Source: a virus (taxonomy: Duplodnaviria; Caudoviricetes). From it: 64,000 nucleotides of DNA. Of this stretch, positions 7,717-26,333 are shown in pieces; the stretch's first letter is position 1, and the number at the start of each line of letters is the position of its first letter. The notes under the pieces were generated by a model, which was given only the letters and a program-made list of their open reading frames with translations, was not told the origin of the DNA and searched no databases. The DNA lies in the IMG/VR virus record IMGVR_UViG_3300033121_001571. One strand, given 5' to 3'. A program made the position numbers and the translations under genes.

Positions 7717-7902
7717 CTAACTCTTCTTGCTGTAAAGATCTCTGTGCCAACCTTCACCCTTGAGTAAAAAACTAGTTCCTCCAGAGATGAGTCTTTTCAG
7801 TTTTTGACCACATTTTTCACAATATCGATCAGAATCATCACTTATGTTGTGTTCTATCTCTGTGACCGTCTGACAACTCTTACACTCGTACTCGTAGATC
7901 AC
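7717..7902 (-). CDS. FmdB-family zinc-ribbon protein
   Basis: IYEYECKSC...CEKCG..LKRLIS..SFLLKGEGW..DLY; GTG start overlaps the DnaE-E stop. Confidence 0.88.
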   Translation of the reverse strand: MIYEYECKSCQTVTEIEHNISDDSDRYCEKCGQKLKRLISGGTSFLLKGEGWHRDLYSKKS

Positions 7903-12607: not shown

Positions 12608-13701
12608 TCACTACAATAGTTATTTCCTTCACCACACGCAATAAAAGTACCTGGAATGACTTTTGAACAGTATGAATTTCCTAACTTAAACACACCAGGA
12701 CTTGGATTTTTCAAAATCTTGAACAGATTGTATATTACACGATCACTGAACTTACCTCCTTCTTTGTATGAGAATTGATCGTATGATATACGAATAAGGG
12801 TCCATCCGTGTTGCACTATGTGTTCATCAAGCAATCGATCCATATTCCTAACATCATTAAAAACTTTTTCTCCTTTTATGCGAGGTTCAAAATGAATTAT
12901 ACCATCAAATTCAACATAAATACGTGCTGTTTTATCAGCAATATCAACTTGTTTTCGATGTGATTTATTTGTAAATACACTTGATTTAACAATCTGATTA
13001 TGTTTGAATTCATAAGGACTAGCGGTTAACAACAACTCAAATAACATTAACTCTGGTTTACTGTGCCATTTAGAATGTGCGGCGAGGGTGCATTTTTCAT
13101 AGAACTCATCAAAATGAGTATTACGCCAAGCTGTCAGACGTGCTGTTCGAATTGCAAGGATCTCTGGTCGAGCTGACGTTTTTTTTGCAGTGATGCGTGA
13201 TAGTTCGCGGCCCCTTGGAGACGAATTTCTTGATGCCATAGCTTCAGCTCGGCGTTTACGTTCATTTGGATTCGCCATAACAGCAGTAGAAACTGCAACA
13301 CTCATCTTAGCCTTATATGCAGTCAAATCGTCGCCACGTTCTTTTGCACGCTTCAACCATGCAAAATTCTGACCACGTTTCTTAAACGCAAGCTGTGTAG
13401 TAAGCGAAGTGAGCTCAGCGTCTGGATATGTAGTTATGTACTCCTTCTTGCTCATGTCATGGACTTGTGTCAAGTGTTTTGTAAGAGTACGACCTATAAA
13501 TCCGCAAATTCGACAAGTAACTGTGTCGTTGGCTGAAAGAACAGTTACTAGACACGCTTTTACGTGTTTTTCGTAGGGTCGCTGGTAAGAAAAGTTCTTA
13601 CCGCATCGGTCACAACGATATTGTATCCCTTTTCGTTGATCATCCACAATGGTAGCATCTCTCCCGTTTCCTTCGTCCTGAATTTGTGATTCCACGTGCA
13701 C
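12559..13701 (-). CDS. Putative homing endonuclease (Zn fingers plus DUF559/Vsr-like PD-(D/E)xK domain), directly after IntN3
   Basis: YRCDRCGKNF...HVKAC and CRICG...KHLTQVH; SKPE...QVDIA...VEFDGIIHF...GWTLIRI. Confidence 0.8.
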   Translation of the reverse strand: MHVESQIQDEGNGRDATIVDDQRKGIQYRCDRCGKNFSYQRPYEKHVKACLVTVLSANDTVTCRICGFIGRTLTKHLTQVHDMSKKEYITTYPDAELTSLTTQLAFKKRGQNFAWLKRAKERGDDLTAYKAKMSVAVSTAVMANPNERKRRAEAMASRNSSPRGRELSRITAKKTSARPEILAIRTARLTAWRNTHFDEFYEKCTLAAHSKWHSKPELMLFELLLTASPYEFKHNQIVKSSVFTNKSHRKQVDIADKTARIYVEFDGIIHFEPRIKGEKVFNDVRNMDRLLDEHIVQHGWTLIRISYDQFSYKEGGKFSDRVIYNLFKILKNPSPGVFKLGNSYCSKVIPGTFIACGEGNNYCSDWCMSSDNLDLCLTQQ

Positions 13702-13910
13702 TTTACCTTTTCTCCAGTAGTGAGCTCTACTTCAACTAAGTCGAGAACACCGTGATCATGTTTCATGATCACGGGAATAATAATGTCATTTCCTGAAATC
13801 TCGTCTCTAGATCTGACTAGATCATTAGGGCAAACATCTTTTAACAACTTAGTCTCTCTGTAAGAGCCATCAAAATTATATATATTCAGAGGTTGTAAAA
13901 AGTACAAACT
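13560..13910 (-). other. Split intein 3, N-terminal part (IntN3, Ser1)
   Basis: Starts at SLYFL right after DnaE FNK; block B CTWNH; ORF ends with no IntC. Confidence 0.87.
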
Positions 13911-14282
13911 TTTATTGAAACCGTACCCAGCGAAATATAAGATCTTATCGTAAAGGTTGTTAGCAACATCAGCAGTGTAACCGTTCTTTATGCATCCTTG
14001 AACAAAGCTATCTCGCGTTTCTTGTGCAGCCTTCTTCGCCGCTTCACCGCCCGAGATGCTGCGCTTCATGATGGCGCGGCGAACCTCGTCACACTTGTCC
14101 TTCGGGAAGCCGGCCACCTTCTCGGCCAGTTCCATCACCTGCTCCTGAAAAATTATACAGTTGTGCACCAGAAGGCCATTTGCGAAGAAATTGTGGTTCT
14201 TCTTGACCTGGATGTCGTACACGGGCTGTGCAGGAGCACGCTTGATTGCACGGATCTTGATGGGAACTACATCAGGCATCAT
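13560..14282 (-). CDS. dnaE: DnaE fragment D: IntC2 + 83-aa extein + IntN3
   Basis: PVYDIQV..NHNFFANGLLVHN|CIIFQEQVMELA...FAGYGFNK|SLYFLQ...VELTTGEKVKCTWNHKF. Confidence 0.92.
   Translation of the reverse strand: MMPDVVPIKIRAIKRAPAQPVYDIQVKKNHNFFANGLLVHNCIIFQEQVMELAEKVAGFPKDKCDEVRRAIMKRSISGGEAAKKAAQETRDSFVQGCIKNGYTADVANNLYDKILYFAGYGFNKSLYFLQPLNIYNFDGSYRETKLLKDVCPNDLVRSRDEISGNDIIIPVIMKHDHGVLDLVEVELTTGEKVKCTWNHKFRTKETGEMLPLWMINEKGYNIVVTDAVRTFLTSDPTKNT
13999..14030. repeat. 32-bp direct repeat, copy 1 (copy 2 at 15429-15460)
   Basis: tgaacaaagctatctcgcgtttcttgtgcagc is identical at both sites. Confidence 0.95.
14160..14282 (-). other. Split intein 2, C-terminal part (IntC2)
   Basis: VYDIQV..NHNFFANGLLVHN followed by Cys+1. 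Confidence 0.92.
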
Positions 14283-14754
14283 CCACCTCGACAATATCGA
14301 ACTCATCGAAGCAACACACTTCTTGGTCGAGCTCGCCGCCTTTCAAACCCTCGAAAAGACCCGAACCCGTGCTACGATTGTAGAACATCGCATCATTGTT
14401 ACGATAATCGTCAATGAGTTTGACTTCAGTCCCAGCGTCGAACCATTCATCGGGACGAGAGATGTATTTGACACGCTTAACTGGTTGGAGAGGTGTAGAT
14501 GAAAAGAAGCCTTCCGCCCCATCACGCATCATCTTGACGTGGACAATTCTCTCGTTAAGATGATCTGCTTGCAGGCGTTCACCTTCGTCAACTAGCCTGA
14601 TCACATTGGGACATGCAGTCGTCTTCTCTACCCATAGTGGGTCAAGAGGCGACGGATGGTGTGGACACGCACGCCAGTCGTGTTGACGTTGACGCTCGAG
14701 CAGGCAAAACACACCCGTCAAGTGCGTGTAACAAACAACGTAATCCCTCATCAT
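14272..14754 (-). CDS. Hypothetical protein inside the insert
   Basis: 160-aa ORF overlapping both neighbours in operon-like fashion. Confidence 0.55.
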   Translation of the reverse strand: MMRDYVVCYTHLTGVFCLLERQRQHDWRACPHHPSPLDPLWVEKTTACPNVIRLVDEGERLQADHLNERIVHVKMMRDGAEGFFSSTPLQPVKRVKYISRPDEWFDAGTEVKLIDDYRNNDAMFYNRSTGSGLFEGLKGGELDQEVCCFDEFDIVEVDDA

Positions 14755-15179
14755 TCACACTCCTGTTCGCGATGCATTAAGCACGCAGCACATATATCGC
14801 GGCCAGGTGTTGACGTCCAAAATTGCTCGTGGCAATCAACACACGTTTGCGTTGGGCTGATGGACAACTTCGTTGCTACGCCGTGTGATGACATAGAACG
14901 AGACAACGCATCAGCGTCCAGCACAACGCGACGTGGGTTGATTTTCATTGCCAACGAACTTGCACATAGTTGACACACCGGTCCATGGACGTCCAACACA
15001 CGAGGACCATGATACTCAAGTTCCATATCGTTGCCCACTTCTTCATGGGCTCGAAACGTATCGAACCAATCGGCATAGGTGAGGTCCTCACGCTTAGCCA
15101 CTTCAGGATGTGACTTCAAGGTATTGATGAAATTCTTGAACGAGGTGAGCAGCTCTTCCTCGAAATCTTCGATCTTCAT
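14751..15179 (-). CDS. Hypothetical Cys-rich protein inside the insert
   Basis: CQLC, CVDC and CAAC motifs. Confidence 0.55.
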   Translation of the reverse strand: MKIEDFEEELLTSFKNFINTLKSHPEVAKREDLTYADWFDTFRAHEEVGNDMELEYHGPRVLDVHGPVCQLCASSLAMKINPRRVVLDADALSRSMSSHGVATKLSISPTQTCVDCHEQFWTSTPGRDICAACLMHREQECE

Positions 15180-15181
15180 GC

Positions 15182-15712
15182 CTAAATTGTCCTCAAGTTG
15201 TGTGGGTAGTTCACAGCCTCAGACCCCCAGACGCGTCTCACCACATAACCTCGAGCCTCAGCCGCGCGGGTGAATGATTCATCGAGTCGATACTGTCGCT
15301 TCATCTTGGACGTCAGTTCGTGCTTTTCTGGATTGCCGTGCCAGTAGTCGCCATCGAACTCTACGAGAATGTTCTCATTTGGAACGTAGAAATCGAACTC
15401 ATGGTTGATGCCTTCAACGTGGCATCTGTGAACAAAGCTATCTCGCGTTTCTTGTGCAGCTTTCTTTGCAGCCTCGCCGCCAGAGATGCTTCGTTTCATG
15501 ATAGCTCTGCGAACTTCGTCACACTTATCTTTTGGAAAACCCGCAACTTTTTCTGCGAGTTCCATTACGCTTTCTTGAAATATCAAACAATTATGAACTA
15601 AAATAGAATTTGCAAAAAAATTACCATTCTTCTTGATTTGAAGATCGTAAACGGGTTGTGAAGGAACACGTTTGACCGCACGGATTTTGACGGGAACTAC
15701 GTTAGACATCAC
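15182..15712 (-). CDS. Alternative fragment D': IntC2' + ~53 aa DnaE fused to a DUF559/Vsr-like nuclease domain
   Basis: VYDLQI..NGNFFANSILVHN|CLIFQESVMEL...RDSFV, then HEFDFYVPNENILVEFDGDYWHGNP...GYVVRRVWGSE. Confidence 0.85.
   Translation of the reverse strand: MMSNVVPVKIRAVKRVPSQPVYDLQIKKNGNFFANSILVHNCLIFQESVMELAEKVAGFPKDKCDEVRRAIMKRSISGGEAAKKAAQETRDSFVHRCHVEGINHEFDFYVPNENILVEFDGDYWHGNPEKHELTSKMKRQYRLDESFTRAAEARGYVVRRVWGSEAVNYPHNLRTI
15429..15460. repeat. 32-bp direct repeat, copy 2
   Basis: Identical to 13999-14030; marks the DnaE/nuclease fusion point. Confidence 0.95.
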
Positions 15713-15972
15713 TTGCCTTGTTGATCTGAAACTTTGATCTGAAACTCTTCGACGTTTGACTCATCTGCGCTATCTTCAACACAAAGCACTCGAAGATAAC
15801 GAATTGCACACGCTAAGAACTGTTCAGGAACCAAATTTGGTGTTTCGTGTTTTGGTACTATCTCTCTTGGAGAAAAAGTCTCTTCCACAGAGTCACACCA
15901 ATGTAAGATACCAGTTAGAGTGTTTGTTTTTACCATAAACACAAAACTACTGCACAGATACTTTCTGTTCAC
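15709..15972 (-). CDS. Hypothetical protein
   Basis: 87-aa ORF coupled to the D' start. Confidence 0.5.
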   Translation of the reverse strand: MNRKYLCSSFVFMVKTNTLTGILHWCDSVEETFSPREIVPKHETPNLVPEQFLACAIRYLRVLCVEDSADESNVEEFQIKVSDQQGK

Positions 15973-15997
15973 TTAAGTTTTAAGATCTAAACAGAGA

Positions 15998-16525
15998 TCA
16001 CAGATCAATAATGATATATTTGTCATTTCTTTTCATGACATTATCGCTAGATATGTCCCCACGCATTTTCACATAGATTCTCAAAAAATCTTTGAGATCA
16101 GAATCGGGCAGAGACTCTACGCTTTCTGGGTTGCTAACAACTTCATCTATGATGAATTTTTCATCTCTTGTCAGTTGATCTAACTTTTCCATCACAGCAT
16201 ACACTGCATAAACAATGTTATCACCCACTTCTTCATCATATCCTTTTAACTTGCCCACTTCAAAAATTTTCACAAATAGTTCAAAATCAGGAATAGACTT
16301 TAGTTTATTCAAATGATAATCAACGCCATCGCTGTCTGGAAACATCTCATATGTTGGCACAAGTTTTATCACTTTTCCTGCTGAATATTCCATGATAACT
16401 CCTTCGTTACCAAACGCAACCACGTTTCCAACGTTTGGAGGGAGGATTCCGTCTCTTTTAAGTTTAGGAATGATTGTTTCAATAAAGTATGAATCGTAAA
16501 AACCTTGGTTTCTTTTTGTAAACAT
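15998..16525 (-). CDS. Minimal protein-kinase-like protein
   Basis: FGNEGVI (G-loop), VIKL, VMEKL hinge, GDISSDNVM catalytic loop, IIIDL. Confidence 0.7.
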   Translation of the reverse strand: MFTKRNQGFYDSYFIETIIPKLKRDGILPPNVGNVVAFGNEGVIMEYSAGKVIKLVPTYEMFPDSDGVDYHLNKLKSIPDFELFVKIFEVGKLKGYDEEVGDNIVYAVYAVMEKLDQLTRDEKFIIDEVVSNPESVESLPDSDLKDFLRIYVKMRGDISSDNVMKRNDKYIIIDL

Positions 16526-16528
16526 CTT

Positions 16529-17413
16529 TTATCTGTTCCAATCTGATCTGTCTTTGATGTGTGCTTCAATCACAATGACTTTTCCCCTGATAGCATCTTC
16601 AAAATCTTTTCTTGCAGTTGAGACAATATTTTTTACATTAGAAAGAAGCTCATCTAACTTGGGATCACCCGTTTCATTATAGTGAAATCCTCGAGTGTCA
16701 AGAATAGCCTGAGTAACGATTTCTGATATTACGTCTACCCAGTTGTAATTTCTAAACGCATTAGTAACAGCTGATTTCATTGTCAGCGCAGACACAATTT
16801 TTGGCCAAAAATAAAATTTGAAATAATCGTTCATATATTCGTTTTTTTCATTTTTGAAAGCATCAATGAACATTTTGTTGATAACTTTCATATACTTTCC
16901 CATTACAGAAATATTTGAAGTTTCATCGATCATAGCGTGTATAATCATCCAAGGTGTAGAAAGAAATCCCTTTTGAAGATGTTCAACTAGTGGAACAAGG
17001 ATCGCAGCACCTTGTTTTCTTGCTTCTTCTAATTGAAGAATTCTGTTTGATGGAACTCCAAATCTAGCTAAAATACTAGCATCACTATATCTTTCACGCG
17101 TTCTATCAGATGTTCTTCCCCTGTTTGATGCCCACCATGTAAATGCTGGTACTACGTAGATTGGAACTGACAGGTTCTTGTATAATTTAATCGCACTGTT
17201 GTAAAAGTTTTTGTTGTCAAAAAATTTCTTGACTTCTTTTCTATCTTTTTCGACGTCAGCATCACTTGAATGATTCTTAGTTTGTAAGACATAGTCTGAT
17301 TTTGCATTAACAGTCCAATCTTCTTCTCCAGCTGGCTCAATTCCAGCTAAAGGAGCTTCTGAGATCACTGAAGATCTGATAAGAGATCGGAGTTCGCTAA
17401 GTTTGATTTTCAC
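16529..17413 (-). CDS. Hypothetical protein, paralog 1 (MKIKLSELRSLI leader)
   Basis: Extensive identity with 18110-18997; GTG at 17413 chosen from TATTTA spacing (ORF track start 17419). Confidence 0.85.
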   Translation of the reverse strand: MKIKLSELRSLIRSSVISEAPLAGIEPAGEEDWTVNAKSDYVLQTKNHSSDADVEKDRKEVKKFFDNKNFYNSAIKLYKNLSVPIYVVPAFTWWASNRGRTSDRTRERYSDASILARFGVPSNRILQLEEARKQGAAILVPLVEHLQKGFLSTPWMIIHAMIDETSNISVMGKYMKVINKMFIDAFKNEKNEYMNDYFKFYFWPKIVSALTMKSAVTNAFRNYNWVDVISEIVTQAILDTRGFHYNETGDPKLDELLSNVKNIVSTARKDFEDAIRGKVIVIEAHIKDRSDWNR

Positions 17414-17432
17414 AATCACTAAATATCAACAC
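17312..17432. repeat. 121-bp exact direct repeat, copy 1 (copy 2 at 18896-19016)
   Basis: Base-by-base comparison; covers the promoter motif, the paralog 5' end and the last codons of IntN2. Confidence 0.93.
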
Positions 17433-17711
17433 TTCATCACTGTCTGTCAAAGACCCAGCGTTTACCCACCCACGGTTCTTTGTCATGACTAAGTGGTCTT
17501 CAGTGACAGTGAGTCGTTTTCCGTCCTCTAACTCTATCTCGATCACGTCTCTTACACCGTTCGACACAGCAGCTACAACCACGTCACTCTCTATTTCAGC
17601 AGATTCCTCGTTGTATGACGGGAGAGTGACGCCGACCATCTGCTTATCAACGATTTCCTTGATAGTGATCTCACCGTTGTCTGTCATCACTCTTGAGTCA
17701 CCAGTTAAGCA
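17397..17711 (-). other. Split intein 2, N-terminal part (IntN2)
   Basis: Block A CLTGDSRV; block B TEDH. Confidence 0.93.
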
Positions 17712-18074
17712 ACTGTAAGTCTTCTCAAGAATCTTATTGATTCTATCGTCACCCCAGTCCATCTGCTTGTTGTTATTCTTAGCGTCAATATACAACTTGT
17801 CTACGTCAGCAGCAAGTGGGCCAGGACGATAGATCGAAGTCAGAGTCGCAATGTCAATGATGTTCTCTGGTTTTGCTTTGACAAACAGGCGCTGAGCGCC
17901 CTTGCCAGTGACTTGAAATATGCCAGCAAACTTTGCTTCTTCATAGACCTTATAGACTTCTGGATCTTCCAGATCCATCTTTGATGGATGCATGTGTTCG
18001 CTGTGCCACTCTTTGATCTCATCAAAAGAGATCTTATCATTTGCAACGTTGTTGACTGACTTTACTTTTGCCAC
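17397..18074 (-). CDS. dnaE: DnaE fragment C: short IntC-like strand + extein + IntN2
   Basis: GIFQ...TSIYRPGPL...KILEKTYS|CLTGDSRV...IELEDGKRLTVTEDHLVMT. Confidence 0.92.
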   Translation of the reverse strand: MAKVKSVNNVANDKISFDEIKEWHSEHMHPSKMDLEDPEVYKVYEEAKFAGIFQVTGKGAQRLFVKAKPENIIDIATLTSIYRPGPLAADVDKLYIDAKNNNKQMDWGDDRINKILEKTYSCLTGDSRVMTDNGEITIKEIVDKQMVGVTLPSYNEESAEIESDVVVAAVSNGVRDVIEIELEDGKRLTVTEDHLVMTKNRGWVNAGSLTDSDEVLIFSDCENQT

Positions 18075-18109
18075 AGCGACAGTCTACTGACTGAGCTAAT
18101 TCTTTACAC

Positions 18110-18997
18110 TTAGCCTTGAATATGAGCTTCAATCACAATGACTTTTCCTCTGATAGCATCTTCAAAATCTTTTCTTGCAGTTGAGACAAGATCACTTATC
18201 TTTGCTAAGAGACTATCGATCTCTTGATCACCAGTCTTGTTGTAATGAAATCCTCGAGTGTCAAGAATAGCTTGCGTAAGAATTTCAGCTGCAATATCAT
18301 ACAACGAACGACCCTTAAACTTATAAACTCTAGCTGATTTCATCGTCAGTGAAGAAATAACACCTGGAAGCAGGTGGTTAAAATACCTTTCTTGTTTCTT
18401 GCTCTTAATTTGACCGTCAAAATCTTCGCCTTCTAAAAATAGATAAACGATCTCACTTACATACTTTCCCATGACAGACGACTCTGTCGATTCATCGATC
18501 ATAGCGTGGATGATCATCCAGGGCGTAGAAAGAAATCCTTTCTCAAGATTCTCAACTAGTGGAACAAAGATCGCTGCGCCTTGTTTTCTTGCTTCTTCTA
18601 AAGCTACGATCTTTTCTGGAGGTACACCAAACCCAGCTAAAATACTAGCATCTTCACTTCTTTCATAAGTTCTCTTAATGCGTCCTCTATCATCAAATTT
18701 AGATCCTCGTCCTGCAGCAAACCATGTAAATGCTGGCACTACGTAGATTGGAACCGACAGGTTCTTATACAACTTAATCGCGCTGCTACGAAAATTTTCA
18801 TTGTTAAAGAATTTTTTGACTTCTTCTCTATCTTTTTGAACAGTTGGCACATCATAATTTTTGAATCGAGCAATAGTCTTAGAGTCCATACCTTTAGTCC
18901 AATCTTCTTCTCCAGCTGGCTCAATTCCAGCTAAAGGAGCTTCTGAGATCACTGAAGATCTGATAAGAGATCGGAGTTCGCTAAGTTTGATTTTCAC
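18110..18997 (-). CDS. Hypothetical protein, paralog 2
   Basis: Paralog of 16529-17413; near-identical ends, divergent middle. Confidence 0.85.
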   Translation of the reverse strand: MKIKLSELRSLIRSSVISEAPLAGIEPAGEEDWTKGMDSKTIARFKNYDVPTVQKDREEVKKFFNNENFRSSAIKLYKNLSVPIYVVPAFTWFAAGRGSKFDDRGRIKRTYERSEDASILAGFGVPPEKIVALEEARKQGAAIFVPLVENLEKGFLSTPWMIIHAMIDESTESSVMGKYVSEIVYLFLEGEDFDGQIKSKKQERYFNHLLPGVISSLTMKSARVYKFKGRSLYDIAAEILTQAILDTRGFHYNKTGDQEIDSLLAKISDLVSTARKDFEDAIRGKVIVIEAHIQG

Positions 18998-19016
18998 AAT
19001 CACTAAATATCAACAC
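18896..19016. repeat. 121-bp exact direct repeat, copy 2
   Basis: Identical to 17312-17432 (offset 1584). Confidence 0.93.
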
Positions 19017-19040
19017 CAGCTTACAACGCGTACGCGTCGG

Positions 19041-19340
19041 TCACCAGTAACATGTACAGAACAAAGTGTTAACTCCTTCAATGTCTTTTTTTGAAAAAGA
19101 GTTATGGTGTAAAAAACTAACGAGTATATTTTTCTCTATGTCAAACACAAATTTCAATGTACTTTTTATTGGGTATGCAAAAAGGTTCGGAAATTTAGAA
19201 TTAAGTTCTCCCACGTACAAACCGAATATCTTTTCATTTTTGTCTAATAAAAGAGGTCTGTTGAAATTTGTTCTATGATAATAGACTCTTCCACAAGGAA
19301 GCACTCGAACAAGATTTCCAACTAAAAACTCATTTTTCAT
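19041..19340 (-). CDS. Small PH...CxC family protein (array member 6, C-terminally short)
   Basis: VRVLPCG...GLYV...VFDI...CTCYW*. Confidence 0.6.
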   Translation of the reverse strand: MKNEFLVGNLVRVLPCGRVYYHRTNFNRPLLLDKNEKIFGLYVGELNSKFPNLFAYPIKSTLKFVFDIEKNILVSFLHHNSFSKKDIEGVNTLFCTCYW

Positions 19341-19349
19341 TTAGGAACT

Positions 19350-19700
19350 TTAAGTTTTCTTAGTAGAGTTATGGTGTGTTACGTAACAACTCATACAACA
19401 ACAATGAAGTGCGCTATAACATAGTTCATCACTGCACTGTATAAAATCAGATGTCACAAATTTGACAAGTTTTTTACTTAACAGATCAAACAAAATAACA
19501 CTAACAAAATTCACTGGTCTGTTAAACTTATAACTGTTTATATCTTTTCTGTGAAGATCTGTCACTGAGATCAAATAACCATCAAGATCTTGGTGATCAA
19601 GACTTGTGTCTTCTTCCTCTTTACAGATAGCGTTAACAGCACCGTGAGCAATTATTTTCACAACGGTGTTTTCTAAGCTCTTAGTTAGTATCATCTTCAT
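19350..19700 (-). CDS. Small PH...CxCxxC family protein (array member 5)
   Basis: KIIAHG...GYLISV...LFDL...CCCMSC. Confidence 0.65.
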   Translation of the reverse strand: MKMILTKSLENTVVKIIAHGAVNAICKEEEDTSLDHQDLDGYLISVTDLHRKDINSYKFNRPVNFVSVILFDLLSKKLVKFVTSDFIQCSDELCYSALHCCCMSCYVTHHNSTKKT

Positions 19701-19748
19701 CTAAACACTTGTACTAGTGAGTGCTTTAAAATGAGATCAAAGAATTCA

Positions 19749-20087
19749 CTAATGCTTTCGTTTCTTATCGAAGTGTTTTACAACACAACTTTTGCAGTAA
19801 CAAGTCCATTTCGATTGATCGCTAATAAAGTTTATGATAGAACCAGACGTTCTAAAGATAACAACTGATTTAACACAGACATCAAACATTGTAACTCTCA
19901 CAAAAAACTTGTGTGGATGGTTTGCAAATCTGTTACGATTAGGTAGATCAGACACTGAAATCACATAACCATAACAAATAGTTATGTTCTCTAAACTCTC
20001 ATTTTGTGTCTTTCTAAGAACTCTGACTCTACCATGTGGGTGAACTCTTATGAGAGTGTTAATTGTAGATGTAATGTTCTTAATCAT
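19749..20087 (-). CDS. Small PH...CxCxxC family protein (array member 4)
   Basis: RVHPHG...GYVISV...MFDV...CYCKSC. Confidence 0.68.
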   Translation of the reverse strand: MIKNITSTINTLIRVHPHGRVRVLRKTQNESLENITICYGYVISVSDLPNRNRFANHPHKFFVRVTMFDVCVKSVVIFRTSGSIINFISDQSKWTCYCKSCVVKHFDKKRKH

Positions 20088-20111
20088 TTTTAACGTTTTT
20101 CAAAACTAACG

Positions 20112-20429
20112 CTAATAAAAGATCTTACAACAAACGTTTGTGTACAGATCTATGCAATAAGAACAGCCACACCCAACAATGTTTTTATTGTTGTTGTGTG
20201 CATATCTCATAGCACTGATCAACTGAAATTCAATTAACAAATTTTCACTCAGATCAAAAATAGTGATCGCTGACTTTGTTTTAGACAGAGAACAAATTGA
20301 AACAACGATACCAAAAAATATCTGTCCACGAGGGAAAATTGACTTCTCACGAGAAACACCTTTTGAAATAAAGCCAGTTTCTCCAAAACAATGAGGAGCA
20401 AAAAATTTGAGATCACCAACTTGAGTCAT
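20112..20429 (-). CDS. Small PH...CxCxxC family protein (array member 3)
   Basis: FAPHC...GIVVSI...IFDL...CGCSYC. Confidence 0.65.
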   Translation of the reverse strand: MTQVGDLKFFAPHCFGETGFISKGVSREKSIFPRGQIFFGIVVSICSLSKTKSAITIFDLSENLLIEFQLISAMRYAHNNNKNIVGCGCSYCIDLYTNVCCKIFY

Positions 20430-20438
20430 TGACTACCT

Positions 20439-20753
20439 TTAAGGTATTGGCAAAACGCTTTTACAACTCAAACAAGTACACCTTAAAACATTGTTCACAG
20501 AAACAAGTTCACTCGGCGTAGAAAACTTCATAACGTTCATGTTCATAAATGAAAACATCGTGATCTTGTCTTGCGTTCGAGAAAGAACAAGACCAACGTG
20601 AATGAACGTTGGATTGTGTAAGTACAACGAATACCAAAGAGATAGATCGTGGGGTATTATCTGAATAATCTGTCCCACAGCAAAAACGTGTCCAAGCACT
20701 TTGGCGCTCAATGATTTGTGTGCCTCTACTAAATACTCATACACTCGAAACAC
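20439..20753 (-). CDS. Small PH...CxCxxC family protein (array member 2)
   Basis: IIPHD...GLVLS...MFSF...CTCLSC. Confidence 0.62.
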   Translation of the reverse strand: MFRVYEYLVEAHKSLSAKVLGHVFAVGQIIQIIPHDLSLWYSLYLHNPTFIHVGLVLSRTQDKITMFSFMNMNVMKFSTPSELVSVNNVLRCTCLSCKSVLPIP

Positions 20754-21040
20754 TCACACTTAATCACGCTTAACACGTTATCATAAAGTGATTGTTCAGT
20801 TATCGAAAACTGCACTAACTTACCTAATTTGATGTCTAAAAAAACAACAAGTACCATACCCTCAGACTTCCACTCAGTGTTCAAAACAATACCAATTAAA
20901 GCTGAATAAGGATGAAGAGTAAATGTTTTAAACGTTTTTTCTCCAATGATATCAATCTCACTGTCGTGAGGATGAACTTTGATCACTTTAGCAATAATTC
21001 TATTTTTCACAATTTTCTCACATAGACAACGTTTTTGCAA
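20729..21040 (-). CDS. Small PH...CxCxxC family protein (array member 1)
   Basis: KVHPHD...GIVLN...FLDI...CECFEC; start probably GTG near 21010. Confidence 0.62.
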   Translation of the reverse strand: MQKRCLCEKIVKNRIIAKVIKVHPHDSEIDIIGEKTFKTFTLHPYSALIGIVLNTEWKSEGMVLVVFLDIKLGKLVQFSITEQSLYDNVLSVIKCECFECMSI

Positions 21041-22827
21041 CCATAGATCTTAAATAACTTGTGTTCAAATGCTAGACTCTCTTGAGAAGCTATGTTTGGA
21101 ATAGAACGCACAAGAAAACGATCAAGTCTGTGGTGACAATCTGTCCACCAAAATCTCGGTTTTGTCTCGTGACTCACAACAAAACCTGAACTCAAATAAC
21201 CGTTACCAGAACCACCCAAACGTGTATCACGATATGTCATGATTCTGTCAAAAGAGTTTTCTTTAGCCCAAGTTGCGGCAGCGCTGATCAGTTTTGACAT
21301 TCCTCCCACAACTACCGTGTTCTTCAAAAAAGCAACTCTAGCAATCTCTAGAGTCTTATCACTCCATTTTTTGATCTGGTGTGGCTTTCTAACAGTCAGT
21401 GTTGCTACAGTCTCGCCATTTTCTGTCTCAAGAATAAATCCTTTTGAAGCTGGCACGTTACCATCGATGTGATTTTCAACAAGAAATTCCGCAACAGATG
21501 CTGGATGAACTGCACGTACTCTGAGCCTTCGAGCAAAGATCTTCTTTGCTTTTTGCAGTTTGACTCTGATCATGCTCTTGATGATCTCTCGCTTGGTGAG
21601 ATCTTGCCATTCGTCTTCAAACACATGTAACAAAGAAGTGTTTGTTGTAGAGGCTAGATCTGACTTTTTCTGGTGATACTCACTGTCTGATATCACAGCA
21701 TCAGAGTGCCAGTATAATCCATTACACTCAATCGCAAATCTCTGATCACTTGACAGTATGTCTAGCTCTAACGGAGCTATTCGTTTTCGATCATTAAGCG
21801 TTGCTCCCGGATCGAACGTCAAGACGTATTCATAGATCTCACTCTGCCACCTTGAAATGACACGTGGATTGCAAGTTGAACACAGCTTTCCCTTACATAG
21901 AGATGACAGTTTTACTTGACAAGTCTCTCCGCACTCTTTACAAGAGACAACAATAAGACTTTGAAATCCAGCAACTTCATATGAATCAACATTCCATTTA
22001 TCTTTCACCGATTCAAGTCTCTCAGCGATCATCTCATGAGTGATTCTAAACGGTGAATTCACTCCCAACTCTATGAGTCTTTTTCTTGTCTGAATTATCT
22101 GTTGTTTGACTCTGTCAGCACAAGCTTTGTGTACCCAGTGACTGGATTTGACACTCTCACTGAGGTTTTCAGAACGTCTCTTTATTCTATCATCAGTCTC
22201 AGACGTTTGTCCGTGTTGAGTCCAGTGCTTTTCTTTCTTCCATTTTTCTGTGAGTGTCTTAGATATCTGAACAGCCGCTTGAGCTACTGAAGCACTGTTT
22301 TCTTTCGTCTGCCCAGAGCGCCAGTGACCGTTCTTTTTTATGAAATCTCTGCACTTTGTTGCAGCGATTCTCACAGACTCGCTCGTCTGTTCTGTCAGAC
22401 CCTTGTTCCAAGCTGGAGTGTTATTTCGTTTTCTAGTTTCGGCTCCACGAAGCTGAGAGTTTTTCTTGCTACACTTTCCGCAGAGCCTCTCATAACCAGA
22501 CTGAAATGACAAGAACTTGACAGGCCCAAAACACTGAGTGCACGGTCCTGGGTGAGAGACAAACAACAAATAAGCATCTTCAGCTAAGACACTGTGAACT
22601 TTTGCTAAGTGAGCTCGAACACTGTTAAGACTTGCTTTCATCTGTTGAGAGCAGATCGGACACTTCGAAAGAAGTGATATCGTCGGAGGGCCTGAGGTCC
22701 CTCGCGAAAACTTTTCCTCTTGCGGTGATAACTTCTTGGTCTCCAAACATTCTTTTTGTTGATCCGTCTTCAAGACAGATCTCAATCCATCCTCGTCGTT
22801 GTCTTTCATCTTTGATGATGAGTTCAA
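21007..22827 (-). CDS. Putative Hef-like homing endonuclease (Zn fingers, PD-(D/E)xK domain, C-terminal GNAT-like domain)
   Basis: CPIC..HLAKVH, PAWNKGLT repeats, ELDI...AIECNGLYWHS, HVFEDEW, EIAR...VVGGMSKL; start uncertain. Confidence 0.8.
   Translation of the reverse strand: MNSSSKMKDNDEDGLRSVLKTDQQKECLETKKLSPQEEKFSRGTSGPPTISLLSKCPICSQQMKASLNSVRAHLAKVHSVLAEDAYLLFVSHPGPCTQCFGPVKFLSFQSGYERLCGKCSKKNSQLRGAETRKRNNTPAWNKGLTEQTSESVRIAATKCRDFIKKNGHWRSGQTKENSASVAQAAVQISKTLTEKWKKEKHWTQHGQTSETDDRIKRRSENLSESVKSSHWVHKACADRVKQQIIQTRKRLIELGVNSPFRITHEMIAERLESVKDKWNVDSYEVAGFQSLIVVSCKECGETCQVKLSSLCKGKLCSTCNPRVISRWQSEIYEYVLTFDPGATLNDRKRIAPLELDILSSDQRFAIECNGLYWHSDAVISDSEYHQKKSDLASTTNTSLLHVFEDEWQDLTKREIIKSMIRVKLQKAKKIFARRLRVRAVHPASVAEFLVENHIDGNVPASKGFILETENGETVATLTVRKPHQIKKWSDKTLEIARVAFLKNTVVVGGMSKLISAAATWAKENSFDRIMTYRDTRLGGSGNGYLSSGFVVSHETKPRFWWTDCHHRLDRFLVRSIPNIASQESLAFEHKLFKIYGCKNVVYVRKL
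22625..22792 (-). other. Degenerate Hint/intein half-domain (no block A; block-B TxxH replaced by FGDQ)
   Basis: IEICLEDGSTKRMFGDQEVITARGKVFARDLRPSDDI aligns by eye to IntN2 IEIELEDGKRLTVTEDHLVMTKNRGWVNAGSLTDSDEV. Confidence 0.7.
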
Positions 22828-23512
22828 TTGTTCTCTCTACCAGTCTAAGCGTTTCAAGGCCAAGCAGATCATATTTAATGAAATTTCCGATCGCCTCTAG
22901 ATGTTTATAATTTACTCCCTCTACCCAAGGACTCTGAGGTTCCCCTTTTGATGTGATAAGAGGCATCTTATCAGGAAGATCGTCAGCTATTAGCACTCCA
23001 CCCGCGTGACGACCCAAAGAACGACCCTGTTTGAACAAGACATTCATAGACTCACCCACTTCAGGGTGCTTGTCAATGAAGTCTTTGAAAGGCTTATCGT
23101 ACTTCAGAGCATCTTCATACGTGAGAACAAACAAGTTCTTGTCATCACCGTGCTTTGTTGTTGCTTTTCTGACGCTTTGTTCAACTGTCTTCGTGGCAGC
23201 ATTGACTTCTTCGAACGGTATGCCATAGAACTTGCTGAGATCTTTTAGAAGAGATTTGACTTTAAATGCGTTGACATTTGAGATCGGAACAACGTTTTCA
23301 TATCCAAAGAAATTTCTCAGCTGATCAAGCACGAGATCTCTGTTAGCAAGATCAGAATCGATATCGGGAGACCCAGAGTTATGCGTTAAAACCCAATTGG
23401 TGTTGTCTTGTGATATCCAAAATGTATGATTATTCTCAACTTCTATATCAATAAGACGTGTACTTTCTTCAACTATTTGAATCGATTCTATCTTAGCTGT
23501 GTTTGTTAACAA
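22625..23512 (-). CDS. dnaE: DnaE fragment B: IntC1 + catalytic palm region + degenerate half-intein tail
   Basis: IDIEVENNHTF...VLTHN|SGSPDIDSD; GRHAGGVLI; IKYDLLGLETL. Confidence 0.93.
   Translation of the reverse strand: MLTNTAKIESIQIVEESTRLIDIEVENNHTFWISQDNTNWVLTHNSGSPDIDSDLANRDLVLDQLRNFFGYENVVPISNVNAFKVKSLLKDLSKFYGIPFEEVNAATKTVEQSVRKATTKHGDDKNLFVLTYEDALKYDKPFKDFIDKHPEVGESMNVLFKQGRSLGRHAGGVLIADDLPDKMPLITSKGEPQSPWVEGVNYKHLEAIGNFIKYDLLGLETLRLVERTIELIIKDERQRRGWIEICLEDGSTKRMFGDQEVITARGKVFARDLRPSDDITSFEVSDLLSTDESKS
23378..23512 (-). other. Split intein 1, C-terminal part (IntC1, 45 aa)
   Basis: KIESI...DIEVENNHTF...THN followed by Ser+1. Confidence 0.92.
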
Positions 23513-24482
23513 GACTTTCCTTATGTTTAGAAATTAAATGTTTTGTATTCTTGTAATTACGGTTTTCTAAATTTGGAATTACCTTATAAAGACCTTCATT
23601 ACGTAATGAAGCATAAAAATCTTCCATATAGATAACATCTATAATAATTCCTTGTGCAATTAACAAATTGCGTATTTTCATATTAGAATTTAACAATTTT
23701 GAAAACAGTGAATCACTTTCTCTAACACCTTTTAATTCAATATAACGATTTTCATTGGGAAAGAAAAAATCAGGCGTATAACAAACATCCCTACCTTCAC
23801 TTGTTACATGAAAAGTTTTGCTTTCATAAAGCGGTACATTTGATTTATAGATACAATATCGATAAAAATCTGCCTCAAATGAACTTTTGAAATAAGGACT
23901 ATTCTCAATATCTAAACGCCATCCAGATCTACCATTTATATGGATTGCTATCATTCCTTTTGATTGAGCTTCAAAAGTACATTTTTTACTACAAAATCTC
24001 ATTTTATAACTCTGCTTAGTAGATTTTACTAAGCCACATACTTGGCACACACATTTTATTTTGTTTTCTTTACTCTTTTGCGTACATTTAGCACTACAAT
24101 ACTTTCTTTTTTGATTTTTTGATTCAAAAATCACATTACAATAATTACACGTCATTTGAACAATTGGATTCTTAGTTAGAGTCTTAGAAGTTTCTATTTT
24201 AGAACACGCTCTAGAACAAAATTTTCGCCCCAATTTAGATTGGGGCACAAAGTATTCTTTGTTACATAACAGACAATTTTTCATAAACCGACCTACAATA
24301 AAATTTCTAACGCTAGAGCGCTTTTGTTTGTTTTTAACTTGACACTCAGTAGAACAGTACATTCTAGCTAACTTGCTAGTTGAACCTTTACCCACGCCAG
24401 AGCACTCAATTTGAAATATTTTTTCACAATATTTACAAGTTTTCTTTACTATGATCATAGTGGTACGTATACAACAGATCAT
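23493..24482 (-). CDS. Putative free-standing homing endonuclease between IntN1 and IntC1
   Basis: Four CxxC...(F/Y)CS..C zinc-ribbon repeats; FKSSFE...YTPDF...IELKG (PD-(D/E)xK); overlaps both flanking dnaE fragments. Confidence 0.82.
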   Translation of the reverse strand: MICCIRTTMIIVKKTCKYCEKIFQIECSGVGKGSTSKLARMYCSTECQVKNKQKRSSVRNFIVGRFMKNCLLCNKEYFVPQSKLGRKFCSRACSKIETSKTLTKNPIVQMTCNYCNVIFESKNQKRKYCSAKCTQKSKENKIKCVCQVCGLVKSTKQSYKMRFCSKKCTFEAQSKGMIAIHINGRSGWRLDIENSPYFKSSFEADFYRYCIYKSNVPLYESKTFHVTSEGRDVCYTPDFFFPNENRYIELKGVRESDSLFSKLLNSNMKIRNLLIAQGIIIDVIYMEDFYASLRNEGLYKVIPNLENRNYKNTKHLISKHKESLVNKHS

Positions 24483-24738
24483 CAGTTGTCAATTCATGTG
24501 TTCGTTTCTTTATGAATTTTCCATCCCCAGCACAAACTAACCACTCATGATTTTCAGAACACTTAAATGTCGTACCATTTACCTTAATAAGGTACGTTTT
24601 TGTAACATGTTGCACAGTTTTATATGTTACTCTTTGTAAAGAACCGTCTTGTGTCAAGACTTTATCTCCAACTTTAATTTCATCAAGAGACGTAGTTTTA
24701 TTTTTTTCTAAAAGAACACGAGTATTTGGTTCTAAACA
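24433..24738 (-). other. Split intein 1, N-terminal part (IntN1)
   Basis: Block A CLEPNTRV...IKVGDKVLT; block B CSENH. Confidence 0.93.
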
Positions 24739-26253
24739 CCTATGAACAGAGAGAAATCTGCTAAACGGTAGGTCCCACTTGATTGGATCTAAGTCTGTGA
24801 TCTCTAAAACATAGTTAACAAGTGAACCCGCACCAGAGCCTCTACCAGGACCAACTAGAGTGACGCTTCTAGCAAGTTCCATGATCTTCTGATAAGAGAT
24901 GAAATAATCTGAGTTTTTCATCTGCTTGATGACAGACAACTCTTCTTTAAGTCTCTCTACGTACTCTTCTTTCTCTGCAAGGCCCTTCTTGATCATGCCT
25001 TCTTTGCACAGTTTACACAAGTGACTGAAAGACGAAGAGTCTTCTGGGACAAGTCTTTTGACAGGGAACTTTGGCGTCCTATCAGGTTCAACAACGCCAA
25101 TCACTTGGTGAGCAATGTCGTGTGTTCTCTCAATCGCTGCAGCGATAACTTCGTCATCATAGAACGAAGTGCCCTCTTTAGAACGCAAGTACTCATCCCA
25201 CATCTGAGAAGCGTTCTTTGGATACAATTCACACTTCAAATCATCTTTAGACTTCGGAAGAGAGTCAGGTGAGTATGTCTTGTAGTTCATAAACCCAAGC
25301 TTCTTGTATAACTCTCTTTCTTTCCAGACGTTTGGATTATAGTAGTGAGCATCACCAGTGACCACAAGTTGATCTGTGACACCGTTTCTCTTGGCAAATT
25401 CTAGTATTGATCTGTTTATCAGATTCTGAGCAAGAATTCTGTTAAATTGCAGTTCAAGATAACAGTTGCCCTTTCCAACAATATCTGTCATCAGATCATA
25501 GAAGTTTCCAACTGCTGTAACACACTTCTCCATAAGAGACGGATCGTCCAACAACGACTGGTCCATAGAATCAAACTTGATCTTCTGAAGTTCTTGAAAC
25601 ACGTTATAACTTGGAAGTCCACCCAAGCAAGCAGAGGTGACAATGATGTCACCATCTTTTGCAGCCTCACGAAGGATGCGAGAATCAATTCTGGGGAACC
25701 TATAAAAACCCTTTAAGTAGCCTAAAGCTACTGCCTGAAACATTTTCTGGAGCCCACGTGATGACTTTGGCAGTACCACCAGGTGATGGCGGCGGTTGAT
25801 TGGGTTGAAGTGCTTTGTCGTCTTTGTCTCTTCTTCATCTTCAATAGTCAAAGCATTTGAAACTTCAATGTCTTCAGTCTCATCATTTTGATCAACAACA
25901 GCAATGAGCTTCGTCTGAAGCTCTTCTTGTTTTTTCAGCAGTTTTGCTGCTGTTTTTTTCTCTGTTGCCGCTAGATCGTGTTCCTCTTTGTCTCTCTGCC
26001 ACTGTTGTAGATCAGGGTGAAAATATGCTTCTACGCCTGGGATATACTTGAAGTTTTCCCCCGCCGATTTCCACTTTTCAACAAATAATTGAGCGTGAGC
26101 ATAAGAGTTGCAGTGACCGTGCTCAGTGATTGCGTGTGCGTCTAGACCGTTTTCTTTGCAAAACTTGAAGTGTTCGTCTGGGTATCCCAAACCATCAAAT
26201 GCAGAAAACCCTGTGTGGGCGTGAAGTCCAACGAATTTCTTGGGAAATGGCAC
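24433..26253 (-). CDS. dnaE: DnaE fragment A: PHP domain + N-terminal polymerase region + IntN1
   Basis: FVGLHAHTGFSAFDG, ITEHG, GVEAY, SACLGG, TGDAHY, GPGRGSGAGSLV, FSRFLSVHR|CLEPNT; GTG start at 26253 assumed (ORF track 26307). Confidence 0.95.
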   Translation of the reverse strand: MPFPKKFVGLHAHTGFSAFDGLGYPDEHFKFCKENGLDAHAITEHGHCNSYAHAQLFVEKWKSAGENFKYIPGVEAYFHPDLQQWQRDKEEHDLAATEKKTAAKLLKKQEELQTKLIAVVDQNDETEDIEVSNALTIEDEEETKTTKHFNPINRRHHLVVLPKSSRGLQKMFQAVALGYLKGFYRFPRIDSRILREAAKDGDIIVTSACLGGLPSYNVFQELQKIKFDSMDQSLLDDPSLMEKCVTAVGNFYDLMTDIVGKGNCYLELQFNRILAQNLINRSILEFAKRNGVTDQLVVTGDAHYYNPNVWKERELYKKLGFMNYKTYSPDSLPKSKDDLKCELYPKNASQMWDEYLRSKEGTSFYDDEVIAAAIERTHDIAHQVIGVVEPDRTPKFPVKRLVPEDSSSFSHLCKLCKEGMIKKGLAEKEEYVERLKEELSVIKQMKNSDYFISYQKIMELARSVTLVGPGRGSGAGSLVNYVLEITDLDPIKWDLPFSRFLSVHRCLEPNTRVLLEKNKTTSLDEIKVGDKVLTQDGSLQRVTYKTVQHVTKTYLIKVNGTTFKCSENHEWLVCAGDGKFIKKRTHELTTDDLLYTYHYDHSKENL

Positions 26254-26300
26254 GAGTTTGTGAAGATATACTGCTAGTAAGCAAACAGTTACACAGCACC

Positions 26301-26333
26301 AAAACAAAAGGCAGGAACTGTATAGTTCCTGCC
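26301..26333 (-). terminator. Intrinsic terminator upstream of dnaE-A
   Basis: GGCAGGAACT/AGTTCCTGCC 10-bp stem followed by TTTTGTTTT on the minus strand. Confidence 0.75.

Follow-up and report, generated by a model that had tools for sequence, protein, structure and literature searches.

A splicing-dead half-Hint remnant at a break in a phage DnaE gene and its possible role as a clasp between two polymerase chains

The dnaE gene of the Caudoviricetes virus studied here is broken between its fragments B and C, and we propose that a remnant of a half-Hint domain, no longer able to splice, probably holds the resulting two-chain polymerase together. Sequence comparison and modelling support the view that fragment B's C-terminal tail is derived from a Hint domain, of which it represents the second pseudo-symmetric unit, and the N-terminal head of fragment C is modelled as the first strand of an IntC. 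Split inteins and endonuclease-fractured genes are already known. The remnant described here is a recognisable half Hint domain, the same half that serves active split inteins in their first capture step, and selection has maintained it in dozens of phage lineages since the chemistry was lost.

The B/C break and its flanking elements

The window, that is the whole stretch of 64,000 nucleotides that was analysed (IMG/VR record IMGVR_UViG_3300033121_001571), contains the following features around the break:

22625-23512, minus strand: fragment B, which ends in a C-terminal tail of ~59 residues
23378..23512, minus strand: IntC of the true A/B split intein, with terminal HN then Ser (ORF translation, relatives)
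22805..23377, minus strand: extein of fragment B (palm domain, PF07733, by Pfam), whose final helix precedes the break
22628..22804, minus strand: tail at the C terminus of DnaE fragment B (residues 237-295), missing in unsplit relatives
22658..22792, minus strand: tail core (B 241-285), for which sequence and model show homology to IntN residues ~52-100, the second C2-symmetry unit of the Hint fold
21007..22827, minus strand: free-standing homing-endonuclease gene with a zinc finger, a nuclease and a Mom/GNAT-like end (phrog_3339, E = 5e-57; phrog_559, E = 6e-51)
19041..21040, minus strand: six tandem paralogs of ~100 residues ending in CxCxxC, cargo in the gap
18110..19003, minus strand: 297-residue paralog of the gene after fragment C (16529-17419), cargo in the gap
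17397-18074, minus strand: fragment C, with ~10 additional N-terminal residues compared with unsplit relatives
18045..18074, minus strand: head at the N terminus of DnaE fragment C (residues 1-10; start codon GTG), which resembles the first IntC strand and is missing in unsplit relatives
17712..18044, minus strand: fragment C extein, in which the fingers domain starts (PF17657, by Pfam)
17400..17711, minus strand: IntN of the true C/D split intein, with Cys1 and TEDH (Pfam Intein_splicing and Hint matches; alignment)

The limits of the extra material are set by the unsplit relatives, in which B residue 236 runs straight into C residue 11, so that B 237-295 (22628-22804) and C 1-10 (18045-18074) are additions to the polymerase. 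For the extein of B, an alignment with residues 505-650 of E. coli Pol III alpha runs across the junction. In 14/14 split loci, the window included, the tail begins directly after the palm helix with residues of the R/Q/G/I type, and a head of 13-16 residues lies upstream of the F..IK.WY motif, which in unsplit forms stands at a fixed 29-30 residues from a helix anchor. The last ~12 residues of the tail are specific to the window and predicted to be disordered.

None of the catalytic elements of an intein was found at this junction. The first ~50 residues of an IntN are wholly missing from the tails; block A and a Cys/Ser nucleophile at the tail start are absent from the window and from the 13 other split loci, and the same 14 loci have no block F, block G, HN or +1 nucleophile where the head ends. 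In the HMM alignment the TxxH columns of block B read F-G-D-Q in the B tail vs T-E-D-H in the C IntN, and none of the DnaE tails has T/S..H at these columns. All C pieces seen possess a start codon of their own and a head resembling K-I-T-S-I, and in one relative, L015, AAGGAGG precedes the ATG. A search of positions 16000-24000 against Rfam for a group I or group II intron, or another RNA element, returned nothing credible. The initial annotation of this DNA had read the tail as the second half of an IntN only, without block A and with FGDQ in place of TxxH, and the start of C as akin to a first IntC strand without block F, HN or a +1 nucleophile. All these elements are present at the positions it gave, the likeness of the head to an IntC strand resting on a model (see below). 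Its view that B and C should not splice and would form separate chains likewise agrees with the missing motifs, the separately translated genes, the start codon of C and the lack of an intron, and the gene that it placed right behind B as an endonuclease (ORF 21007-22827) is indeed a member of a homing-endonuclease family (phrog_3339).

The material between B and C amounts to 4.5 kb of translated genes. The endonuclease gene overlaps the B tail by its 5' end, in another frame, and has homologues at the same site in two relatives (L014 and L012). Other relatives carry GIY-YIG/NUMOD, Vsr-like or REase-like genes there: across loci the B and C pieces are separated by at least five different nuclease genes, or by none. 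As to the cargo, no family match was found for the six CxCxxC paralogs, and repeats D2-D5, including 121 identical bases, tie the gene at 18110..19003 to its paralog at 16529-17419.

Hint ancestry of the tail and predicted fold of tail and head

The Hint relationship of the tail is visible at several levels of sequence comparison. In local alignments, the tail matched the second half of the C-fragment IntN with a score of 56 (z = 7.0; 0/500 shuffles scored as high), and had no match to the A IntN, the D IntN or the C head. When the tail was compared with the local IntNs by hhalign, the probability was 87.8% (E = 3e-6). Searched against 177,635 PDB sequences, a tail profile returned the NrdJ-1 intein (residues 64-104) and the Sonic hedgehog Hint domain as its top two matches; searched against 1.84 billion proteins, it gave 307 matches at E <= 0.001. 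Among the best 150 of these 307, TxxH was found at the aligned position in 127, of which 99 were C-terminal (true IntNs) and 28 internal, so these matches look like true inteins. Pfam assigned no Hint family at E <= 10 to six tails searched alone: profile searches were needed to reveal the relationship. In tblastn searches with B or the tail, 50,697 phage records yielded only distant DnaE matches, and the tail was in none of them. The exclusive match to the adjoining C/D IntN, together with the paralogs flanking C, first suggested that the tail was a recent partial duplicate of that IntN; this idea was rejected because the tail is present in relatives without any C/D intein (L004, L007 and L009).

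Predicted structures point the same way. The Hint fold is built from two C2-related units (bioRxiv 10.1101/546465), of which the second, consisting of the block-B region and the next strand, is present in the predicted models; the split loci hold no sequence to form the first unit or the closing C-terminal Hint strands. AF2 folded the window tail alone into five strands (pLDDT 77-86, falling below 50 at the end). For a combined model of tail and head we used L015, a natural locus, with readthrough of the TGA that lies in frame there. This model has a mean pLDDT of 84, with ~95 in the tail, and its head forms a strand at residues 87-94. The top 47 Foldseek matches of this model were all inteins or Hint domains. 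By VIA-align, inteins make up 36/38 rows for the window tail model (with Msm DnaB, Z is 4.9 and the rmsd is 1.5 A over 45 residues), and residues 25-95 of the L015 model superimpose on Npu DnaE 55-109 (Z 5.8, rmsd 2.3 A) and on Msm DnaB 46-111 (Z 7.3, rmsd 1.8 A), structural Z-scores (4-8) that are middling for so small a domain. The similarity of the tail to Hint domains, postulated by the initial annotation, is thus borne out by sequence profile, by profile-profile comparison and by fold.

The head is too short for sequence statistics, and its modelled assignment as the first strand of IntC comes from this read-through model of a relative, in which the head strand aligns to Npu DnaE residues 103-109, a 15-residue linker holds the head near the tail and the predictions come from AlphaFold, a program exposed to many inteins. 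The first IntC strand of an intact intein has a second pairing, with a strand from the first unit, the unit that is missing here. A complex prediction with tail and head, run without controls, scored 0.24 against a mark of 0.32, a result that we count neither for nor against binding.

Distribution, selection and the proposed assembly of a two-chain polymerase

The same tail was found at the same DnaE site in 14 distinct metagenomic loci and in 60 protein clusters, in which its length varies from 42 to 70 residues and its hydrophobic pattern is kept. The split state is scattered over the tree of the polymerase extein, where it needs 11 changes, the same as with shuffled labels. A split locus (L007) and an unsplit one (L050) are even sisters, 889 nt in the former replacing 21 nt of the latter. 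This scattered distribution over at least 14 loci and the several unrelated endonuclease genes indicate that the tail, the endonuclease gene and the head behave as one unit, an old and mobile cassette. A catalytically intact intein at this DnaE site, which the initial annotation had suggested looking for in related phages, was seen in none of 57 loci, 90 B-like clusters or the top 150 profile matches, so that decay in place is something we infer rather than observe. The initial annotation had pictured a fourth split intein turned into a docking module. The tail is Hint-derived, motif-free and conserved, as that picture supposes; decay within this phage and domestication by its host do not agree with an element scattered over at least 14 loci and 60 clusters. 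Two other candidates were set aside: a 38-residue in-frame insert at the site in P0230, considered as a fused tail and head, had no match to the tail HMM, and a UvsW match in Salmonella phage S16 proved to be an ordinary, complete split intein.

A mechanism may be suggested from these data. A mobile cassette sits at the B/C break, with a tail of ~45-59 residues on B, at least one free-standing endonuclease gene with cargo, and a head of ~10 residues on C. The tail and head would be the remains of a split intein, namely the second IntN part (IntN2) of the N-fragment and the first strand of the C-fragment, parts whose charges draw them together first in active split inteins. With Cys1, block A, TxxH, blocks F and G, HN and the +1 nucleophile all lost, B and C cannot be spliced, and their translation is separate. 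The three true inteins would splice first, giving a chain A+B and a chain C+D+E, which would then associate non-covalently. The tail would contribute an acidic half-Hint sheet, to be completed by the basic strand of the head in a loop on the surface, between the palm and the fingers. Tail-head binding may in this way aid assembly of the polymerase.

Selection on the tail bears directly on a rival explanation, which we hold to be rather unlikely: that tail and head are tolerated leftovers of the endonuclease cassette, the native palm-fingers interface alone holding the chains. The cassette clearly behaves as a selfish, mobile element, the site of the break is an interdomain loop, and the NrdA halves of phage Aeh1 bind without their tails (PMC3045599); in addition, identity among the tails (24-52%) is far below that of the flanking extein (58-73%). 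However, the tails are under purifying selection: pN is lower than pS in 10/10 tail pairs, with dN/dS of 0.19-0.66 where dS is unsaturated, and while the overlapping endonuclease frame could supply part of the constraint in the window and L014, the result also holds for loci in which tail and endonuclease gene hardly overlap. Leftovers would also have to account for a tail length and hydrophobic pattern that are maintained in 60 clusters, for opposite charges of tail and head in 13/14 pairs (mean net charge -4.1 for the acidic tails and +2.1 for the basic heads), and for the persistence of both elements in L004 (286-nt gap) and L015 (39-nt gap) after loss of the endonuclease gene.

The evidence of selection is silent on the partner, and the tail alone is predicted to fold without the head, so the half-Hint might have been kept for another job, binding a replisome protein or the neighbouring endonuclease, or controlling the stability of the fragment. 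We consider this improbable: in every split locus C starts with a co-conserved head of opposite charge, and the intervening genes vary or are absent, which means that no constant third partner is encoded nearby. It is hardly credible that B and C are joined covalently, by unconventional splicing chemistry or at the RNA level; no support was found for this, and what brings it up is solely that the gene is spliced at its other three junctions. Against it stand the lack of a nucleophile at either junction and of blocks A, B, F and G, the translated genes between the two pieces, the start codon of C with a ribosome-binding site in relatives, and the Rfam result. Non-covalent clasping by the half-Hint remnant is thus the reading that we favour.

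If the clasp works, a mobile element could interrupt an essential gene and do without protein splicing, and the running of a replicative polymerase as two chains would be explained; the ~55-residue element would also be a natural, minimal and orthogonal heterodimerisation pair for protein engineering. It is tempting to speculate further, and we see an even chance, that selfish cassettes of this build, with a half-Hint tail, a homing-endonuclease gene and a head strand, form a class of elements which split essential phage genes and replace splicing by non-covalent strand complementation. One ribonucleotide reductase locus is built in this way, and further cases may be a helicase, a terminase-like protein and others. 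For annotation there is a warning: a short Hint-like tail does not imply trans-splicing.

Relation to known split genes and inteins

The fractured genes of Dassa et al. 2009 (PMC2677866) are alike in that an essential phage replication gene, DnaE included, is broken at a conserved site, that a free-standing endonuclease gene begins at the upstream fragment's stop codon or overlaps it, and that Hint-derived sequence lies on both sides of the break; the other three junctions of the present gene are textbook cases of this kind. Those split inteins, however, have the full set of six motifs and five catalytic residues and are expected to trans-splice, whereas the B/C junction retains about half of the fold and no catalytic residue. 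The words 'degenerate', 'inactive' and 'non-covalent' do not occur in the text of that study (PMC2677866).

The closest precedent is NrdA of Aeromonas phage Aeh1, where insertion of mobE gave NrdA-a and NrdA-b their tails (Crona et al. 2010, PMC3045599). There too, a free-standing endonuclease gene splits an essential gene and both products carry unique, oppositely charged tails that are missing in unsplit homologues. These tails are essential for activity but dispensable for formation of the heterodimer, promoting instead the dimerisation of heterodimers (PMC3045599); tails can thus matter for reasons other than docking two halves. The authors speculated that they might be remnants of a degenerate split intein (PMC3045599), and the DnaE case now supplies sequence and fold evidence for such a guess of decayed split-intein tails. 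The systems differ in that the charge polarity of NrdA is the reverse of that of the DnaE B tail and C head, and in that the present element can be shown to be homologous to Hint domains and is both widespread and mobile. The Aeh1 NrdA tails themselves showed no similarity to our tail profile in hmmsearch (0.4 and -1.1 bits).

In active split inteins, the acidic, disordered C-terminal half of IntN and the basic start of IntC make the first contact (PMC11766414). The parts retained in DnaE correspond to Npu residues ~55-109 and match the charge polarity of the 'capture and collapse' inteins Npu/Ssp DnaE and gp41-1, which differ in having the first C2 unit, blocks F and G and the chemistry that are lost here. 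By analogy, the DnaE remnant, if it works, would stop at 'capture'. Retention of an intein derivative after loss of splicing is also known from yeast, whose HO endonuclease is a degenerate intein that has been domesticated (bioRxiv 10.1101/2020.01.20.913210); in HO the endonuclease function was kept for the host, whereas in the phage polymerase the Hint part itself would serve as the structural connector.

The B/C junction of a fragmented polymerase

A single DnaE-type polymerase is spread over five genes on the minus strand of the window, with complete split-intein halves at the A/B, C/D and D/E junctions:

24433-26307, minus strand: fragment A, with the PHP and palm domains and a C-terminal IntN (N-terminal split-intein half) with Cys first
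22625-23512, minus strand: fragment B
17397-18074, minus strand: fragment C
13560-14306, minus strand: fragment D
7899-8942, minus strand: fragment E

The B and C genes lie 4.5 kb apart, and their junction maps between the helix that follows the conserved D-F-L-G-L motif and the start of the fingers domain, about residues 560-580 of E. coli Pol III alpha; it contains no intron-like RNA. Unsplit relatives join B residue 236 straight to C residue 11, and the split-specific material is therefore B 237-295 (22628-22804, the tail) and C 1-10 (18045-18074, the head). Both lack block A, block F/G, HN and any nucleophile at the junction. Over its last ~55 residues, B aligns with the latter half of the fragment C IntN (local alignment, score 56, z = 7.0, reached by none of 500 shuffles); by the same method, the tail did not match the A IntN, the D IntN, any IntC (C-terminal half) or the C head. 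In the HMM alignment, B has FGDQ at the block B TxxH columns, where the C IntN has TEDH. Directly behind B, the ORF at 21007-22827 is a member of a phage family of homing endonucleases (phrog_3339, E = 5e-57). The initial annotation had described exactly this, half an IntN at the end of B, missing catalytic motifs and an adjoining endonuclease gene, and its observation stands as written.

This 606-residue ORF overlaps the B tail in a different reading frame (22625-22827, minus strand): its zinc finger has the first Cys at about 22662, upstream of the B stop codon, and the frame is open back to 22827. Its homologue in the related locus L014 also overlaps the tail there, by about 150 nt. Dual coding with the endonuclease ORF may account for the greater length of the window's tail compared with the other tails.

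Six tandem paralogs of ~100 residues with a common C-terminal CxCxxC motif occupy 19041-21040 within the B/C gap and have no Pfam or PHROG family. A 121-nt exact repeat (17312-17432 and 18896-19016), which takes in the last codons of the C/D IntN, lies at the 5' ends of two ~296-residue paralogs flanking C; outside the repeat they are only about 79% identical, a pattern suggestive of recent gene conversion. A second IntC and a partial D copy are fused to a Vsr-like nuclease end (15182-15712); this copy is 77% identical to the real D over 290 nt (13992-14281) and lies in a GC-richer stretch (0.476 for 14001-16000).

Hint ancestry of the tail

Several independent tests, on sequences and on predicted models, make a derivation of the tail from the Hint (Hedgehog/intein) fold well supported. 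A six-tail profile compared with all PDB sequences ranked the NrdJ-1 split intein first (residues 64-104, E = 0.004) and the Sonic hedgehog Hint domain second (E = 0.006). Profile-profile comparison with the local IntNs placed the tail on IntN columns 53-96 (probability 87.8%, E = 3e-6). Pfam models alone did not detect the tails. Searching 1.84 billion representative proteins with a 14-tail profile gave 307 matches at E <= 0.001; among the best 150, 99 were C-terminal with TxxH (true split-intein N-fragments), 28 were internal with TxxH (contiguous inteins) and 23 had no TxxH at the aligned position, 14 of these being C-terminal. Loss of catalysis at B/C is likewise well supported.

In the related locus L015, one reading frame is common to the tail, a TGA stop, a 13-residue spacer, the head and the rest of C. 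We modelled it as a natural read-through, with TGA read as Trp; the remaining tails and heads entered the alignment as partial rows. AlphaFold2 (mean pLDDT 84) predicted five strands for the tail at about 95 and a strand for the head at residues 87-94 (pLDDT in the 80s to 90s), the head placement being that of a tethered chain from a relative. The top 47 Foldseek PDB matches were all inteins, bacterial intein-like or hedgehog Hint domains, each with a probability of about 1. With VIA-align, residues 25-95 of this predicted model superimposed on the Npu DnaE intein (55-109; Z 5.8, rmsd 2.3 A, 53 residues), gp41-1 (42-99; Z 6.1) and Msm DnaB (46-111; Z 7.3, rmsd 1.8 A), Z-scores that are middling for so small a domain. 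Modelled alone, B 144-295 of the window gave the same five strands (pLDDT 77-86) with the last 12 residues disordered, and 36 of 38 VIA-align rows were inteins (e.g. residues 53-101 of the Npu IntN chain). In the published dissection of gp41-1, the region matching the tail corresponds to the second C2-symmetry unit; the natural split falls within this unit, immediately ahead of the strand that opens IntC (bioRxiv 10.1101/546465).

Split and unsplit relatives

We compared 57 loci from scans of IMG/VR and metagenome contigs. About 30 distinct loci are unsplit at the B/C site; in unsplit forms the helix anchor and the F..IK.WY motif of C are a constant 29-30 residues apart. Fourteen, the window included, are split at the exact same point, and all 14 carry an alignable 43-58-residue tail after the helix and a 13-16-residue head before the motif; all C pieces begin at a start codon of their own. 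A protein search recovered B-like fragments with a 42-70-residue tail at this position (60 clusters at 90% identity), none of which has a full IntN there. The relatives with a full intein at this site that the initial annotation had suggested seeking were absent from the surveyed loci and clusters, as was any active intein there.

One otherwise unsplit DnaE, P0230, departs from the fixed spacing seen in all other unsplit forms: it has a 38-residue in-frame insert exactly at the B/C site, after the D-L-L-G-L helix. By eye the insert ends in a head-like K-K-I-T-F-I stretch; it did not match the tail HMM.

Gene content of the gap varies between loci:

Content of the B/C gap in split relatives
L001, L009, L018: GIY-YIG/NUMOD endonucleases
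L007, L019, L034: a second GIY-YIG-like type
L014, L012: homologues of the window's 606-residue nuclease
L048: Vsr-like gene
L047: REase-like gene
L017: gene of unknown kind
L004, L015: empty

The L004 and L015 lineages (L004:8204-8745, L015:453-881) lost the endonuclease gene and remain split, with tail and head in place and gaps of 286 nt and 39 nt; in L015, AAGGAGG lies within the 39 nt from the B stop to the C ATG.

Mapped on a tree built from the flanking exteins, the split state requires 11 changes, no fewer than with shuffled labels; well-supported branches force at least 6 of them. The split L007 and the unsplit L050 are sister sequences in which 21 nt of L050 are replaced by 889 nt in L007, comprising tail, endonuclease gene and head, with boundaries exactly at the tail start and the head end. 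The scattered split state and this replacement thus indicate that the three elements behave as one mobile unit.

The same architecture is found in a ribonucleotide reductase gene. In locus L058 (4691-5105, protein P0009), an NrdA fragment ends its extein with a 43-residue half-Hint tail without TxxH; the next gene, 10 bases downstream, opens with a 14-residue K-I-V-K-K-type head before NrdA resumes at I-A-L-C-T-L. In four other proteins the C-terminus matches the tail profile, with no TxxH and no room for the first Hint unit; by sequence these may be further half-Hint tails: a DEAD-box helicase (P0071), a 1013-residue protein adjoining a 5'-3' exonuclease gene (P0072), a short post-IntC fragment (P0030) and a terminase-like protein (P0093). 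In Salmonella phage S16 (NC_020416.1, 104626-107352; L062), a complete split intein (Cys1, TGNH, HN then Cys) divides the UvsW helicase into gp114 and gp115, with the nuclease-like gp114.1 between; the record labels the pieces only 'DNA helicase' and 'hypothetical protein'.

Function, origin and known systems

The tails appear constrained: pN was below pS in all 10 pairwise comparisons, dN/dS was 0.19-0.66 where dS was unsaturated, and the remaining pairs had pS of 0.8-1.0 against pN of 0.3-0.5. Net charge averages -4.1 in tails (negative in 13 of 14) and +2.1 in heads (positive in 13 of 14). In the capture-and-collapse model of split inteins, the basic IntC first meets an acidic, disordered stretch of IntN (PMC11766414, citing Shah et al. 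2013). A docking function is plausible, being favoured by selection, charge and modelling. Splicing of the three true inteins would leave a tail-bearing chain, A+B, and a head-bearing chain, C+D+E. The strand of the head would complete the half-Hint sheet of the tail, aided by the opposite charges, and the pairing would link palm and fingers with no peptide bond between them. We infer both this binding and its importance.

As to origin, an ancestral split intein at the B/C site may have lost its first Hint unit and the catalytic end of IntC. Alternatively, an endonuclease gene may have moved ectopically from a fractured gene, together with the DNA flanking it there: exactly the 3' end of IntN on one side and, on the other, the 5' end of IntC. 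The initial annotation had proposed a fourth split intein decayed and domesticated within the window's phage. Its Hint ancestry and lost catalysis hold; the local decay does not, as the tail, endonuclease gene and head are a widespread mobile cassette (14 loci, 11 tree changes, the L007/L050 replacement) and not a local product of this phage.

The fractured-gene layout is known from split inteins with full activity (Dassa et al. 2009, PMC2677866), whereas the B/C tail and head of the window lack catalytic motifs; a term search of that paper found none of 'degenerate', 'inactive' or 'non-covalent'. Literature searches on degenerate or inactive intein remnants as connectors returned nothing closer. 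In Aeh1, mobE splits nrdA at the same inter-cysteine site as the NrdA break of L058; the Aeh1 tails, which Crona et al. speculated might descend from a degenerate split intein, have no similarity to the half-Hint tail family. The concept of such tails has been proposed earlier, and what is new here is their demonstrable Hint ancestry, the precise half retained, their spread and their mobility.
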